IMG/VR virus record: IMGVR_UViG_3300012166_000007
Span: 1 to 31,819 of that record
DNA from: a virus
Taxonomy: Duplodnaviria > Caudoviricetes
DNA length: 31,819 bases
Direction: 5' to 3' (one strand)
Below, in pieces: positions 144-17,205 of this stretch. Numbering within the stretch: position 1 is the first letter of the stretch; the number at the start of each line of letters is the position of its first letter. The notes under the pieces are model-generated. The model was not told the DNA's origin, did not search any database, and saw nothing but the letters and a program-made list of their open reading frames with translations. The position numbers and the translations under genes are program-made.

Positions 144-632
144 ATGAGCGACACATGGGGTATCGAGGACAACACGAACCTGGCCGGAACTGCTGAGCTA
201 ACCGGGCCCAAGGCACTTCGTGATGCATACGATGCGATGAAGACGCAGAACAAGGAGCTGGCAGACGGTCTGGCCGCCGTCACCAAGCAGCTTCGCGACA
301 ACACCGTATCAGGAACCCTCAGTGAGCTTGGAATTCCCGCCACTGCTGGAGAGCAGTACAAGGGAGAGGCGGACCCGACCAAGGTCCGTGAGTGGGCAAC
401 CACTATGCAGTCCCTCTTCGGAGGTGGCGGAGGAACTCCGGTTCCAGCCCCAACAATTGACCCAGCAGTACCGCCTGTCGCCCTTGAGGGCGACGCGGCA
501 GCGCAGTACCAGCGCCTCAATGAGGCAGGTCAGTTCGGAACTCCGGCTGGCACGATGGAAGCTGCAACGGCTGGCGTCAATGACGCTAACGATCTCAACA
601 GTCTACTGGCCGCATGGTCGAACATCAAGTAG
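144..632 (+). CDS. Capsid scaffolding protein
   Basis: AGGAG RBS; coiled-coil N-terminus and Pro/Ala-rich linker; lies directly upstream of the major capsid gene. Confidence 0.75.
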   Translation: MSDTWGIEDNTNLAGTAELTGPKALRDAYDAMKTQNKELADGLAAVTKQLRDNTVSGTLSELGIPATAGEQYKGEADPTKVREWATTMQSLFGGGGGTPVPAPTIDPAVPPVALEGDAAAQYQRLNEAGQFGTPAGTMEAATAGVNDANDLNSLLAAWSNIK

Positions 633-665
633 TCTGTAGCTCCAGATAGGAAGTGAGCCCCGCGA

Positions 666-776
666 GTGAAACGCTGCACAAAGTGCGGCATCGAGAAGTC
701 CGTGGAAGACTTCCATCTTGACGATGACCCGCACGTCGTGACTAGGGCAGCCCTATACCTCAACGGCATCAAATAG
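666..776 (+). pseudogene. 36-codon internally deleted endonuclease VII/HNH remnant (MKRCTKCGIEKSVEDFHLDDDPHVVTRAALYLNGIK)
   Basis: RBS AGGAAGTGAG at 648-657 then GTG; KRCxxCGxxKxxxxF N-terminal Zn motif joined directly to the DDPxxxxxAxxYL C-terminus typical of phage endo VII proteins; catalytic DH core missing. Confidence 0.7.
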
Positions 777-1732
777 CAAACGCCTTCACTGGTACTGCGG
801 CGATGAGCAATCTCGTCCAGACCACGTATGACCGTGCCCTGGAGTTCGCGCTCCGCGCACAGCCCATGTTCCGCCAGGTCGCCGACAAGCGACCTGTGCA
901 GCAGGCAATGCCTGGCAGCTCGGTAGTCTTCGAGCTGTACCAGGACCTTGCTCAGGCGACGACTCCGCTCAACGAGCTGGTCGACCCTGACGCTGTTGCG
1001 GCGGGACAGCCCACCACTGTCAGCGTGACGCTGAACGAGTATGGTAACTCCATCCTGATCTCCAACAAGCTGGACCTGTTCAGCTTCACGGACGTGACCG
1101 CAGGTCTCGTAAACCAGGTAGCGTGGAACCTTGTCGACTCCGTCGACACTCTCGTTCGCAACGTCCTTGACGGTGGAACGAACTACATTCGTGACAATGG
1201 CGCATCTGGCCCCGTTTACAACGGCGCTCAGACCACTGTTGGAACCACTGCGGCTGACATCTTCGCATCCAGCTGGGTTCGCCTTGCTGTAGCGAAGCTG
1301 CGCACCAACAAGGTTCACCCGAACAAGGGAAGCTTCTACACTGCATACATTCACCCAGAGGTTTCGCACGACCTTCGTGCGGAGACTGGTGGAGCAGCGT
1401 GGCGTGACCCGCACAACTACTCTGCGGCCGGTAACATCTGGGCTGGAGAGATCGGAGAGTACGAGGGAGCTGTCTTCATTGAGACTCCTCGCTCCACTGT
1501 CCAGGTCAATGCCGGTGCTGGTGGCACCGTCGATGTCTACAACACTTACTTCACCGGACAGCAGGCTCTTGCCGAGGCTGTGGCGGAGGAGTTCCACACC
1601 GTTCGCGGTCCGGTTGTAGATAAGCTGACCCGCTTCCAGCCTCTGGGCTGGTACGGCGTGGCTGGCTGGAGTCTTTACCGTCAGGAAGCCCTGATCCGAG
1701 CCGAGTCTTCTAGCTCGATCGGCGCCAACTAA
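773..1732 (+). CDS. Major capsid protein (N4-gp56-like HK97 fold); start either ATA 773 or ATG 803
   Basis: 309-319 aa; TLNEYGN, YIHPEVSHDL, GEIGEYEG and PLGWYG motifs; follows the scaffold and precedes a strong terminator; the frame upstream of ATG803 reads ATA-A-N-A-F-T-G-T-A-A. Confidence 0.9.
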   Translation: MANAFTGTAAMSNLVQTTYDRALEFALRAQPMFRQVADKRPVQQAMPGSSVVFELYQDLAQATTPLNELVDPDAVAAGQPTTVSVTLNEYGNSILISNKLDLFSFTDVTAGLVNQVAWNLVDSVDTLVRNVLDGGTNYIRDNGASGPVYNGAQTTVGTTAADIFASSWVRLAVAKLRTNKVHPNKGSFYTAYIHPEVSHDLRAETGGAAWRDPHNYSAAGNIWAGEIGEYEGAVFIETPRSTVQVNAGAGGTVDVYNTYFTGQQALAEAVAEEFHTVRGPVVDKLTRFQPLGWYGVAGWSLYRQEALIRAESSSSIGAN

Positions 1733-1737
1733 CGGAT

Positions 1738-1767
1738 GGGGCCCGCCTTTGGGCGGGCCCCTTTCTT
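1738..1767 (+). terminator. Intrinsic terminator after the capsid gene
   Basis: GGGGCCCGCC-TTTG-GGCGGGCCCC then TTTCTT. Confidence 0.85.
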
Positions 1768-2134: not shown

Positions 2135-2518
2135 ATGGCTTGGGTGTATACACTGAACACTGTGGAGGAAGCTCCCTTTGCCTGGAATGCGCTCCACGAA
2201 AGGTTTCGCATTCCCAGGGGCATCTCTGTGAAGGAGATTGCCCCATGTGAGTATGTTGAAGTTCGCTACGATGCTTACACGAATGAGCAGGGAGCAGCGA
2301 ATCTTCCCACTCCAGCCGGAGGCTGGGGAGACCCCGACTTCTGGAGTCAGCCCTCTGCGGGGCTGAACTACTTCCGTGGAGGATACGAGCACATGGTATC
2401 CGATGCGGTCAAGGCATGCCTGATCTCTTCCGGCGTGGCTGATGAATCAAACTTTACGCCATCGCCTGGAACATTTGGCTATAACGGGTTCGGCATCGGA
2501 CCTTTCGGAGGATCCTGA
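2135..2518 (+). CDS. Virion structural protein, function unknown
   Basis: RBS AAGGGAG; TGATG overlap with the next gene. Confidence 0.7.
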   Translation: MAWVYTLNTVEEAPFAWNALHERFRIPRGISVKEIAPCEYVEVRYDAYTNEQGAANLPTPAGGWGDPDFWSQPSAGLNYFRGGYEHMVSDAVKACLISSGVADESNFTPSPGTFGYNGFGIGPFGGS

Positions 2519-3708
2519 TGACATTCGCACCTATTGAGCGTGGAAGTGCCGACTGGGACATCCCGGTCAATGCAGCGTTCGCTGACCAGGATACTCGCAT
2601 CACCGACAACACGAACTCGATCAATGATCAGGCCGTAGATATCGCAGCCAAGGTGAGCAAGTCCGGCGATACGATGACCGGAACTCTGACAAACGACAAT
2701 GCCAGCGCCAACGGCACTGCCTATCTGTCCCGTCAGACTGCCGACGTAGTCGACAGGTTCCGCATTCAGAACAGCGGACGCCAGGAGTGGGGCGATGGAG
2801 CGGTAACCAGGGATGTATCCCTGGCAAGGGCTTCAGCTGGTCAGCTGAGGATTACTCCCACGGTGAATGCTTCGTCTTCTACCTCCGCTGGTGGAGCGCT
2901 GAACGTCACCAACACCGCCTCCACTGGAGCTGGAGCTGTGGTTTATACGGAGCAGGCGGCTCCGGCTGGACACAACTTCGTGTCCCGCGTGAACAGCGCC
3001 ACGTTCAACCAGAGCGGCATCTTCGCCCAGTACAACGGCACTGGGCACAACGTAAACGTCAGCCACGCGGGTACGGGATCAGCTTCTTCTGCCCTGAACA
3101 TCGGCTCCACAAACCCCGACCATTCGGCCGTGGGGATCGGAGGAGTAGAGACCGCCAAGGGCACTGTCAAGATTACTCACACTGGCACGGGAACAGACGC
3201 CAGTGCTGCGGCTGTATCTGTCGACCTGGCTGGTACTGGAACTGCTGCGCAGGGAATCTTCATCACGGGGACCGGTGGCGGAACCACCGGCAACCTGATC
3301 GAGGGACGTAACGGTGGCACTGGCGCCGTGTTCAACGTCAACGCTACTGGTGCGATTGGCCTTGGTTCCGGCACTGGAGTGCCGGACTGCACGATCTCCA
3401 GGAGCGCGGCCAACACCATCAGCGCCAACACCGCCGACCTGAGGGTCGGAACGGTGGGCCGAGGTCTGCGTGTAGCTGAAGGATCCAACGCCAAGCAGGG
3501 AGTCGCCACTCTAGTGGCTGGCACTGTGACTGTAGCCAACACTTCGGTTACCGCCAGCAGCAGGATCTTCCTTACATCTCAGGCGGATGGCGGCACTCCA
3601 GGATTCCTGCGCATCAGCGCAAGGACTGCCGCAACCAACTTCACCATCACGTCCAGTAATGCGGCAGACACTTCGGTCGTCGCATATCAGATCTTCGAGC
3701 CAGCGTAG
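2518..3708 (+). CDS. Tail fibre/spike with phage hyaluronate-lyase-like (HylP) beta-helix region
   Basis: SSS..GGALNV, SSALNI, GVE..KGTVKITH, DASAAAVSVDL, GTAAQGIFI and GTTGNLI parallel the streptococcal phage HylP sequence as recalled. Confidence 0.75.
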   Translation: MTFAPIERGSADWDIPVNAAFADQDTRITDNTNSINDQAVDIAAKVSKSGDTMTGTLTNDNASANGTAYLSRQTADVVDRFRIQNSGRQEWGDGAVTRDVSLARASAGQLRITPTVNASSSTSAGGALNVTNTASTGAGAVVYTEQAAPAGHNFVSRVNSATFNQSGIFAQYNGTGHNVNVSHAGTGSASSALNIGSTNPDHSAVGIGGVETAKGTVKITHTGTGTDASAAAVSVDLAGTGTAAQGIFITGTGGGTTGNLIEGRNGGTGAVFNVNATGAIGLGSGTGVPDCTISRSAANTISANTADLRVGTVGRGLRVAEGSNAKQGVATLVAGTVTVANTSVTASSRIFLTSQADGGTPGFLRISARTAATNFTITSSNAADTSVVAYQIFEPA

Positions 3709-3720
3709 TCAGGAGGAACA

Positions 3721-4908
3721 GTGACCACAATCAACTACAAGGATGGCAGCATCCTCCTTCCGTCCTATTCCGATCCCTCCAAGGATGCGCTGTACGCTGG
3801 AACCGCGCCCGTCATTACGAACACTCAGTCGGCTACGTCCACAATCGCTTCAGCGCAGAAGTGGACACCAGCGCCTGTAGTGCTGGCTGGTGCTGACAAG
3901 TACTTTCCGTTCACGTACCTTGGTGCTGGTGACTTCGTTAACGGAACTGGCACTCCGGATTCAAGCTATGTTCTGCCGCTGAGCAGGTATCCCAACACTT
4001 ATGCATCCGGTCAGTCCGGATTCGGTGTAGAGTTTATGTACTCCGGCCAGATCTTCGAGGTCAAGTACAAGTACATCGGGACGTCTACGTTCTACCGCAT
4101 GTATGTGAATGACCGCAAGGTCACTGACCTTATGCAGTCACCTCCCGGCCCGCCGAGTGCAGGAACCAGCAATGTGCTCAAGGTCGATCTGGGTTCTGTT
4201 GATGTATGGAAGATCCGGTTTGAATTCAGCACGATGCCGTTTGGCGGCATCTTTACTGGCCCCAACGATTCCATGTATCCAACGCTGAAGTCTTCCAGGG
4301 TTGCGGTTCTGGGCGATTCTCTTACCGATGGTTCTGCGCAGAACACTGGGGCCAGCATGGGAACCTGGTTTAAGAGGTTCGGCAGGCTGATGGGGCTGAA
4401 CGATACGTGGGGTGAGGCTCGCGGCGGAACTGGCTATGTAACTCCAGGAAGCTTCGCAACGTTCCCGGCTCGGGTCAACCGTGATATCGTGACCTACAAC
4501 CCAGACATGGTCATCGTCTGGGGAGGATACAACGATGTGGGATCTGACGTATCCAGTATCAGCGCTGCGCAGCTTGTCACACTGAAGGCCATTACCAGCC
4601 AGCTTCCGCTGGCTGATGTGATTGTCATCGGAGTGTGGAGTCCTGCGGCTTCGCCAGGCGCATCCAGGATCGCCGTCAATGATGTACTCAGGGCCAATGC
4701 CCTGGCCCTTGATCTTCCGTTCATTGATCCCCTGGACGGAAACGTCTACGACCGCTACAGCCGTGTCGTGCATACTGCCGGTCCATGGATCACTACCAAC
4801 AATGTGTCACTGTTCGTCGGCGGAGACGCCATTCATCCGACAGACGCCGGACATAAGGCTATCGCTACTGTCATCGCCGACTCTATTGCGGCGCTGAACA
4901 ACTCTTAG
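3721..4908 (+). CDS. SGNH/GDSL esterase, probably virion-associated
   Basis: Blocks GDSLT, GGTGY, GGYND and DAIHP; GGAGG RBS with GTG start. Confidence 0.85.
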   Translation: MTTINYKDGSILLPSYSDPSKDALYAGTAPVITNTQSATSTIASAQKWTPAPVVLAGADKYFPFTYLGAGDFVNGTGTPDSSYVLPLSRYPNTYASGQSGFGVEFMYSGQIFEVKYKYIGTSTFYRMYVNDRKVTDLMQSPPGPPSAGTSNVLKVDLGSVDVWKIRFEFSTMPFGGIFTGPNDSMYPTLKSSRVAVLGDSLTDGSAQNTGASMGTWFKRFGRLMGLNDTWGEARGGTGYVTPGSFATFPARVNRDIVTYNPDMVIVWGGYNDVGSDVSSISAAQLVTLKAITSQLPLADVIVIGVWSPAASPGASRIAVNDVLRANALALDLPFIDPLDGNVYDRYSRVVHTAGPWITTNNVSLFVGGDAIHPTDAGHKAIATVIADSIAALNNS

Positions 4909-14471: not shown

Positions 14472-15329
14472 TCAGTCCTCTCCGAATAGGTCTACCTTAT
14501 GGTTGTCGGCGACGCCGACACCATCATTGAACAGAATACCTTCGGTCGAGTCGTCCTCCTCGATGTGGCAGATCGCAGGATCTGCCTTCATTCGGAAGAA
14601 CTTCTTGGCCATTGCATCCTGAGGACCGAATCGATTCTTGACCACGGCAACGTCAAGCGTACCGTTATGCGCATCACCCCAGAGGGTGATGATGCACGTC
14701 GGTAGCTGATTAGCCTTGCCCATGATGGCCGACCGAGGAGGAGGAGTACCACCCTTGGCCGACTCCGAAGTGTGATGCACAATCGTGAGTGCTGTCTGCT
14801 GTTCACGCACCATCACCTTCAATTCAGACATCAGGGCCCAGTAATTCTGTTCACCAGCACCCTCATAGTCGACATCCATGAGGATGTCGATAATGGTGTG
14901 GTGAGGGTACTCCCCATGAACCTCGCGGAAAGCTTCAGCCTCCGCCCACATGTGGTCCAAGGTTGGTGCCGCATGGAACGACCACTTCACGTGGCTGAAC
15001 TTCTGTAGCACCGGAGCGGCAAGCTCCGGATGCATCATGATCTCAAGCTCCGACTCGTCGGTCGACTGACCGGTCAGCATAGACCTCACGCGAGTAGCCA
15101 TCGTGAAGTCATCGGAGTCTGAAGAGTGATAGAGAGTGGGAACGTCCGATCCCATGGCATCCACGATGTTCAGCATGAGAACTGTCTTCATGGAGCCGGG
15201 AGGGCCAGCTATCATCTGAATGGACGAGCGCCTGAAGGAGATCTTCTTTTGTTCGAAGACCGGCCAGGGAGCCGGAAGAGGCTCCCCAGCCGATAGCCCC
15301 CGCCGGACGCTGCGGAACAGCGTCTTAAT
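14472..15329 (-). CDS. DnaB-like (SF4) replicative helicase, probable ATT start
   Basis: Walker A variant AGPPGSMKT, IIDILMD, VHH and VVKNRFGP; open frame from ATT 15329, 5 nt after AAGGAG. Confidence 0.85.
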   Translation of the reverse strand: MKTLFRSVRRGLSAGEPLPAPWPVFEQKKISFRRSSIQMIAGPPGSMKTVLMLNIVDAMGSDVPTLYHSSDSDDFTMATRVRSMLTGQSTDESELEIMMHPELAAPVLQKFSHVKWSFHAAPTLDHMWAEAEAFREVHGEYPHHTIIDILMDVDYEGAGEQNYWALMSELKVMVREQQTALTIVHHTSESAKGGTPPPRSAIMGKANQLPTCIITLWGDAHNGTLDVAVVKNRFGPQDAMAKKFFRMKADPAICHIEEDDSTEGILFNDGVGVADNHKVDLFGED

Positions 15330-15331
15330 GA

Positions 15332-15766
15332 CTACTCCTTGGGAGCCTGGAGGCGGACCTCGTAGAGCTTCTTCGGGAACGGAGCGTTGCCGCTGTCATC
15401 CTCTTCGGTGAACTTGATGGCGATCACTCCACCAGGAACCAGCTTGCCACCCTCACGGATGGCCTTCTTGGTGGCCTTCAGTCGCTCGCTCTCCAGCCGG
15501 AGAGAGACCGGCGTGCCATCCTTGAGCTTGCCCACGATCAGCCAGGCAGGGACGGCCTCGAACGGAAGCTGAAGGACAAGGTCCGACTGCTTGACCAGCT
15601 TGTTGTTCTGGAAGTACAGCTGGTCGCCCGGCTTGCCCTTGATGAACTCCCGGACCGGCACCTTCTGCACGGTGTCGATGAGGATCTTGTGCTCGGTACC
15701 GATGGTCTCGAACTTGACACCCTTCGGGATGCTGGATCCACCGATGTCGTTGATGTCGTCGCTCAT
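15332..15766 (-). CDS. Single-stranded DNA-binding protein (putative)
   Basis: KFETIG...ATKKAIREGG.L.PGG..AIKF......PKKLYEV pattern of actinophage SSBs; synteny. Confidence 0.65.
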   Translation of the reverse strand: MSDDINDIGGSSIPKGVKFETIGTEHKILIDTVQKVPVREFIKGKPGDQLYFQNNKLVKQSDLVLQLPFEAVPAWLIVGKLKDGTPVSLRLESERLKATKKAIREGGKLVPGGVIAIKFTEEDDSGNAPFPKKLYEVRLQAPKE

Positions 15767-17131: not shown

Positions 17132-17205
17132 TGCGCGGATGGACAGGAATCGAACCTGTGCATGGGCCTTCACGGCCCATGTTCTGCCACTAAACTACCA
17201 CCCTC
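17132..17205 (-). tRNA. Atypical tRNA (His-like G-1:C73, non-canonical anticodon loop CGTGAAG)
   Basis: G-AGGGTGG TA GTTT-AGTGGCA-GAAC A TGGGC-CGTGAAG-GCCCA TGC ACAGG-TTCGATT-CCTGT CCATCCG C GCA. Confidence 0.7.

Follow-up and report, generated by a model that had tools for sequence, protein, structure and literature searches.

The major capsid gene of the phage DNA analysed here (one stretch of 31,819 nt, hereafter the window) depends on a mobile-element remnant lying across its 5′-end, and evidence from the wider family of such inserts favours initiation at AUA773 with the insert looped out. The insert appears to be a stub, left by deletion, of an endonuclease VII cassette that is likely mobile and whose RNA ends would pair with each other, bringing the cassette's own Shine-Dalgarno sequence (SD) to 5 nt from AUA 773, where a ribosome would initiate the capsid across the looped-out insert. 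We assign this model, a split ribosome-binding site spanning a whole gene, a probability of roughly 0.6; it builds on the anatomy of the cassette, its constant geometry, the covariation of its arms, the lack of a local SD or NTG and its scatter beside empty alleles, all of which can be read from the sequences. The same helix would bury the endonuclease start, GTG666, and most nuclease synthesis would then precede transcription of the 3′ arm.

To judge from its genes, the phage to which this fragment belongs is related to Streptomyces cluster BF, whose members are described as tRNA-rich podoviruses (PMC9753666, PMC13097060): the window shares synteny with FlowerPower, and its capsid protein is 91.9% identical to FlowerPower gp36 (Table 1). 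A scaffold role for the product of the gene preceding the capsid is suggested by gene position. The terminator-like hairpin following the capsid gene should be read against expectation, one having been found where shuffled sequences gave 1.5. A search of solved structures with the capsid returned one distant capsid matching residues 173–278, the N-terminus lying outside the match. Beyond the capsid module, the window encodes a hyaluronidase or K1-lyase-like protein (2518–3708), of which FlowerPower matches the first 79 residues only, and a GDSL esterase (3721–4908), both likely receptor-binding or depolymerase proteins. The first 30 nt of the window resemble a tRNA 3′-end, inside which the contig begins, and match the tRNA array that precedes the 144..632 gene in relatives; in one of these (L111:124–204), an 81-nt Rfam tmRNA match of 58 bits, above the gathering score, lies within the array. 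A lone 73-nt tRNA on the minus strand (17133–17205), called Ser(tga), has no long variable arm and an odd anticodon loop, and sits among replication genes, away from the tRNA array of the family.

Table 1 Features at the capsid 5′-end and its surroundings (window coordinates)
Feature	Position	Strand	Remarks
Upstream gene, 162 aa, FlowerPower gp35 ortholog	144..632	+	phrog_7813 match
Extended SD carried by the cassette	648..656	+	−14.1 kcal/mol
5′ arm	657..686	+	Predicted partner 738–767; contains GTG 666–668
Endonuclease VII remnant, 36 codons	666..776	+	N- and C-terminal ends only, catalytic motif deleted
Conserved inner hairpin	695..713	+	6 bp, 7-nt loop
Deletion junction	716..718	+	291 nt (97 codons), in frame, relative to closest full-length copy, L097
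3′ arm	738..767	+	Ends in invariant GGC 765–767, predicted to close the helix with 657–660
Spacer from closing helix to first capsid codon	768..772	+	5 nt; same length in 10/10 cassette alleles
ATA, putative capsid start codon	773..775	+	Aligns with the NTG at which cassette-free relatives start
Major capsid protein gene, 319 codons	773..1732	+	FlowerPower gp36 comparison
Terminator-like hairpin 3′ of capsid gene	1738..1761	+	Consensus match only

At the capsid 5′-end, an extended SD (AGGAAGTGA, 648–656) is followed by GTG 666, which opens a 36-codon ORF running to TAG 774–776; this stop overlaps ATA 773–775, which is in the capsid frame, and ATG 803 lies further downstream. These positions, and the identity of the ORF as an endonuclease VII remnant, bear out the initial annotation, as does its observation that excising 669–775 would yield MANAFTGTAAMSNLVQ, the natural capsid N-terminus of relatives. 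Alignment with those relatives, which it had proposed, showed that among the best 80 all that have upstream sequence start NTG-GCN-AAY behind a ribosome-binding site, with no insert (L011, whose sequence begins within codon 3, has no upstream part). Because cassette-free relatives start in this way behind an SD, ANAFTGTAA is the natural capsid N-terminus, which makes ATG803 an internal codon, number 11. As had been noted earlier, this ATG has no SD (−3.5 kcal/mol in the window), and the same holds in all ten alleles that carry the cassette.

Read support for base 775, another check already proposed, was examined in contigs from one set of sequencing runs. An RNA-library contig (X4/13, an independent run) covers 626–776 with 0 differences and bridges the deletion junction, and A775 is also present in a DNA-run contig that has three differences elsewhere and extends just 22 letters to the left of this base. 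Both contigs are shallow (depth 2–3.4); the supporting runs are independent and from different years, and one contig has third-position differences of its own. As far as such shallow data go, the insert junction and base 775 are real and not an assembly error, and five other cassette alleles likewise have ATA at the start position. Cassette alleles are known from metagenomes only, with no cultured carrier among 50,697 phage records, and this origin, together with the shallow contigs, is what speaks for the window allele being a sequencing artefact or part of a dead genome that produces no capsid; such an explanation is hardly credible, however, with the junction and A775 present in independent runs of different years and the same layout recurring in nine other alleles.

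Assignment of the remnant to endonuclease VII rests on weak PHROG hits together with a colinear alignment with full-length PF02945 genes. A full-length cassette of ~410–440 nt occurs in 9 other capsid alleles of cluster-BF-like phages; PF02945 was detected in 7/7 full copies scanned, and the CX2-4C, DH.H, R, CX2C-N motif (F-CphI type) in 9/9, with L117 lacking one zinc Cys. Dependence of the capsid on the element, as originally claimed, was upheld, whereas calling it domesticated overstated the case, a full-length nuclease gene being present in 9/10 alleles. Loci were collected with patterns for capsid genes without an NTG start plus a nuclease-first scan, and L101, the window's own record, was left out of the counts. 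Among at least 135 distinct capsid 5′-ends, 10 contain the cassette, at least 117 are empty with an NTG start and 8 are empty with ATA, ATC or ACG (one chance match was dropped, and the search for non-NTG alleles was exhaustive for the viral set). The first capsid codon of the ten cassette alleles is ATA (6), GTA (1), ATC (1) or TCG (2), never NTG, and the capsid-adjacent loci found nuclease-first (12 loci, 8 alleles) are all non-NTG. A pattern targeted at cassette alleles with an NTG start gave 0 matches, and no cassette was seen among the 117 canonical NTG alleles, 23 of which have less than 450 nt of upstream sequence. Further stubs or cassettes were sought with an inner-hairpin pattern, which returned 11 known cassette loci and 4 chance matches, and in prokaryote genomes, which returned 1 chance match only.

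In a capsid tree, cassette alleles are spread over several well-supported clades and adjoin empty sisters. Capsid DNA of the filled allele L097 is 98.5% identical over 323 nt to that of the empty allele L013, and filled L115 is 99.7% identical over 600 nt to empty L135; patchy presence beside near-identical empty alleles, the hallmark sought for homing by an Endo VII-type nuclease, is thus what was found. The cassette is likely mobile, and the full-length nuclease alleles look recently spread. In both pairs the SD and NTG of the host gene have been replaced by the SD at the 5′-end of the cassette and the first codon at its 3′-end. Because filled and empty sisters differ in this manner, the SD at 648–656 and ATA773 are both cassette parts and GTG666 is the start of the endonuclease, not a displaced capsid start as first supposed, and the cassette extends over roughly 648–778, which supersedes the 107-nt insert (669–775) of the initial annotation. 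Relative to L097, the window copy has lost 291 nt in frame, and with them the catalytic core, both ends and the inner hairpin being spared; this sparing is consistent with selection, although as one event it is no proof. In L091, L096 and L111, the original ribosome-binding site and the opening six capsid codons are still present ~70 nt upstream of the cassette SD, where they form a 13-codon leader; after it comes sequence that by eye is complementary to the cassette SD. Such a layout demonstrates that a copy of the capsid 5′-end comes with the cassette, and SD availability may there depend on translation of the leader.

Energies of SD pairing were computed with an actinobacterial 16S 3′-end as the anti-SD. 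The SD at the 5′-end of the cassette ranges from −13 to −17 kcal/mol in 10/10 alleles, against a median of −11.2 in 113 empty canonical alleles, and the site just before the capsid start from −2.2 (the window) to −8.0 kcal/mol, against a random coding median of −5.4. A local SD in the nuclease 3′-end is absent in the window and weak in 4/10 alleles; the window therefore has the strong distant SD and no adequate local SD that characterize a split ribosome-binding site. Linear distance from SD to start is 119 nt in the window, and the order SD, closing helix, 5 nt and the codon aligned to the NTG start is the same in 10/10 alleles. When the insert is looped out and the helix counted as zero, the SD-to-start spacing becomes 5 nt in 10/10. 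Cassette-free alleles with near-cognate starts are spaced similarly (5 nt in five of the eight, 4 nt in two, 6 nt in the last), while 16 canonical alleles with the same 8-mer SD type have spacings of 1, 3, 6, 7 or 9 nt, never 5. This agreement is the strongest single argument that the SD would serve the capsid. For the nuclease the same SD is badly placed: its NTG stands 12–13 nt from the SD core in 7/10 alleles, and L106, L107 and L112 have no NTG between the SD and the first cysteine.

Such placement bears directly on translational coupling, the chief alternative, in which ribosomes would start the endonuclease ORF at GTG666, stop at the TAG and reinitiate at the overlapping near-cognate codon, the pairing of the arms serving only to repress the nuclease. 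In 10/10 alleles the nuclease ORF ends close to the capsid start, its stop being offset from it by −4 to +5 nt (+1 in six, +5 in two and −4 in two), an overlapping or adjacent position that suits coupling and counts against a split site; the window deletion is in frame (1 in 3 by chance), and several alleles have an SD-like AAGG or GAGG in their 3′ arm (−6.7 to −8.0 kcal/mol in 4/10). We nevertheless regard coupling as unlikely. It would cap capsid output by the making of an active nuclease, and the upstream ORF does not show the efficient, well-spaced start that coupling calls for, the nuclease start being displaced from the SD core (7/10) or missing behind it (3/10) and predicted to be paired; nor does coupling explain why the 5-nt spacer after the helix is fixed while the stop moves, or why it matches the cassette-free alleles, and in the window the reinitiating ribosome would find no local SD (−2.2 kcal/mol).

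The helix on which a split site would rely was predicted from an unedited alignment, in which RNAalifold returned an end-to-end helix together with the 6-bp inner hairpin. In 10/10 alleles, pairing the first 36 bases of the insert with its last 40 gives a best duplex in one register, directly after the SD and 5–6 nt before the start. In a 19-pair version of this helix, 78.8% of cells pair, 8 pairs show two-sided changes and one position shows four pair types, and the covariation score was reached by 0/500 shuffles, a test that ignores relatedness; slid registers pair only 28–43%. The three closing pairs are invariant and so contribute no covariation. The inner hairpin is kept in 9/10 alleles, being weakened in L110 and carrying one compensatory change in L111. 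Furthermore, the probability of the terminal helix (P) is at least 0.96 in 8/9 full copies and 0.63 in the ninth, while P of at least 0.9 was reached by 1/40 random coding windows, and free-standing endonuclease VII genes cut at the same boundaries gave at most 0.22 in 8 (a ninth gene was left out). Cutting at arm ends favours end pairing, and the controls were cut alike. When the cut points of three control genes were shifted by 3 nt in nine tries, however, the maxima rose to 0.29, 0.91 and 0.85; because end pairing at some register is thus not rare, only the fixed register is informative. The spacing-restoring helix of a split site is in this way conserved in the family by prediction and covariation, and less clearly present in the window. 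From these patterns we infer that the fold forms in vivo, that AUA initiates and that the endonuclease start is buried.

Several measures qualify this picture. On the models, the window stub is the weakest case of the family fold: its exact closing helix has a P of 0.08, and the fold of lowest energy is better than the fully closed fold by 1.4 kcal/mol and than the three-tier family fold by 3.2 kcal/mol, although it too bridges the ends (657 to 767), via two adjacent helices. In a separate measure of how close the ends come together, the window was matched by 15/200 shuffles. A weak closing helix in the window is in turn a point for coupling, a route that may matter more for the stub than for full copies. 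When the flanks are left free, the window, L097, L111, L116 and L117 do not favour the closing helix, and in L106 it falls from 1.00 to 0.01 with longer flanks. Arm duplex energy clearly beats shuffles in 5/10 alleles only and is unremarkable in the window, L097 and L115; similarly, the cognate partner is best or tied-best for 4/10 5′ arms only. The four consecutive hairpins of the initial annotation each fold in isolation (−10.5, −8.0, −5.4 and −4.9 kcal/mol) but were rejected as the family fold, the conserved structure being the end-to-end helix plus the inner hairpin at 695–713.

Initiation at a codon other than NTG would not be exceptional in this family, in which near-cognate starts appear to be tolerated: 8 cassette-free capsid alleles have a near-cognate start, with no NTG alternative apparent in most. 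Those alleles (L082, L083, L084, L087, L089, L100, L271 and L272) carry ATA, ATC or ACG behind an extended SD and group near the cassette-bearing alleles in the capsid tree. Elsewhere in the window, on the minus strand (15327–15345), a DnaB-like helicase apparently starts with ATT behind a good SD, its first NTG being 38 codons in; helicase ATT or ATC starts were seen in the window, L278, L283, L285 and possibly L284 (4 clear cases in 12 phages). AUA or AUU behind an extended SD is reported to give ~10–30% of AUG output in S. aureus (PMC13009471), and AUA equalled AUG in E. coli extracts (PMC5499595). No phage tRNA with an altered initiator anticodon was seen in the partial loci and records checked, which are mostly incomplete. 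Four tRNA-Met(cat) genes (L042:1771–1847, L083:695–769, L085:414–488 and L092:299–371) have a mismatched first pair, and two of them also have three G-C pairs in the anticodon stem, features that we presume to mark initiator-like tRNA-Met.

Were AUA not used, the capsid might instead lack its first ten residues and start at ATG803 (codon 11), reached by ribosomes that scan and reinitiate or supplied by a leaderless transcript. That codon is ATG or GTG in 10/10 cassette alleles, and starting there would account for the TCG alleles. We consider it very unlikely all the same: no SD precedes codon 11 in any of the ten (−3.7 to +0.2 kcal/mol), no TANNNT stands at leaderless distance in any of them, no promoter-like site was found in 1–1900, and codon 11 encodes Leu in at least four relatives (L051, L072, L077 and L078), which argues against a required start. 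Codons 2–10, moreover, change as coding sequence does, chiefly at third positions (15 extra alleles versus 3 and 4).

Recoding or removal of the insert would join the upstream start to the capsid frame: ribosomes might shift by −1 at ATC-AAA-TAG or hop from GTG666 to 773, or the RNA might be spliced. There is precedent in the T4 MobA cassette, a homing element that carries a bypass (bioRxiv 2022.08.31.505936); paired arms would also bring both insert ends close. These routes are nonetheless highly improbable. The direction of shift is not constant, the capsid frame being −1 in 6 alleles and +1 in 4, which disposes of a general −1 shift. For a hop, the alleles do not all keep an upstream NTG, they would land on different codons (ATA, GTA, ATC or TCG) with no take-off codon to match, and the early in-frame stop after take-off that marks a gene 60-type bypass is missing. 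As for splicing, no Rfam intron family matched, to E 1, in the window or 6 cassette loci; nearly the entire insert is nuclease ORF, with neither ribozyme core nor splice signature found, and the RNA-library contig is unspliced with no joints seen, though it may derive from DNA. Of the routes first listed, initiation at AUA773 and looping-out are therefore favoured by the family, and the −1 shift, AUG803 and insert removal are disfavoured.

Why the first codon of a filled allele is never NTG may lie in the specificity of the nuclease: if the TG of the start codon belongs to its target, the change would confer self-immunity, an idea that, taken alone, we hold to be possible with the balance slightly against it. 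In six alleles the ATA or GTA also forms the TAG of the nuclease, and in 4/10 the non-NTG codon is not forced by stop overlap, yet still none is NTG. TCG is a very poor initiator, and the TCG starts of L116 and L117 are hard to explain. At the 3′-end of these two cassettes (L116:1884–1894, L117:859–869), the spacer and ATG of the empty sister reappear with one base inserted, which yields TCG in frame; the extra base might be a repair scar at a cut site. On the self-immunity view, the window stub and the cassette-free alleles that keep a cassette-type SD and ATA or ATC would represent successive decay stages. Taken together, we only tentatively propose a new class of selfish element: a homing cassette that would cut at the capsid start codon, be neither spliced, protein-excised nor bypassed, swap the ribosome-binding site, recode the start for self-immunity and fold its nuclease gene out, with one helix silencing the nuclease and activating the capsid.

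The arrangement is real, recurring and, as far as searched, previously undescribed. One report describes nuclease genes near capsid genes, and searching it for start codons or ribosomes gave no hit (PMC10448857); no description of a capsid-start nuclease cassette was found in the literature searched, which was mostly without subscription journals. If the split-site model is true, it would show one more means by which a homing nuclease can occupy an essential gene without harm, in addition to introns, inteins, gene splitting and bypassing; the reach of the split-site principle would grow from 22–27 nt, as in T4 genes 38 and 25, to a gene of 400 nt; and the most abundant virion protein could be made from AUA, AUC, GUA or even UCG-type starts. 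Gene callers accepting ATG, GTG or TTG only would put these capsid starts ten codons late. The natural series of empty, full, stub and ex-cassette alleles offers a test bed for 30S binding across large structures and for the leniency of actinobacterial start-codon choice.

Among known systems, the predicted arrangement resembles the split sites of T4 genes 38 and 25 (Nivinskas 1999; Malys and Nivinskas 2009, reviewed in PMC3014915), where a helix between SD and start shortens the spacing from 22 to 5 nt and from 27 to 11 nt. Those are small local hairpins before an AUG, with spans of 22–27 nt, whereas the cassette is likely mobile and would act before a near-cognate codon on a scale 5 to 20 times as large, with a predicted loop of 111 nt in the stub and 401–430 nt in full copies. 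Full copies share the CX2C ... DH.H ... R ... CX2C-N motif and PF02945 domain of F-CphI and other Endo VII-motif homing endonucleases (PMC6083498); F-CphI, however, adjoins an intron that protects its target, whereas the cassette, a candidate homing element, has no intron, and the window copy has lost the catalytic core. As with the hairpins that repress T4-type I-TevI, mobE and segB, a predicted RNA helix buries the nuclease start; in those genes the SD is hidden locally and relieved by late promoters (PMC2988022, PMC3014915), whereas here it remains clear of the helix and would be passed on to the gene that follows. The S. aureus genes ccpN, citZ, cvfC1 and infC likewise combine AUA or AUU starts with long SD helices, but are kept low on purpose (PMC13009471), in contrast to a major capsid gene whose SD is >100 nt away linearly. 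T4 MobA with the gene 60 bypass is also a homing nuclease that travels with an RNA device rescuing an essential gene; its insert additionally blocks self-cleavage, and the nuclease is lost stepwise while the device stays (bioRxiv 10.1101/2022.08.31.505936), which, by analogy, makes it the closest parallel to the self-immunity idea. MobA relies on bypassing during elongation, which involves a nascent peptide and a landing codon matched to the take-off codon, whereas the cassette device would act at initiation and be built from the two ends of the nuclease gene itself.
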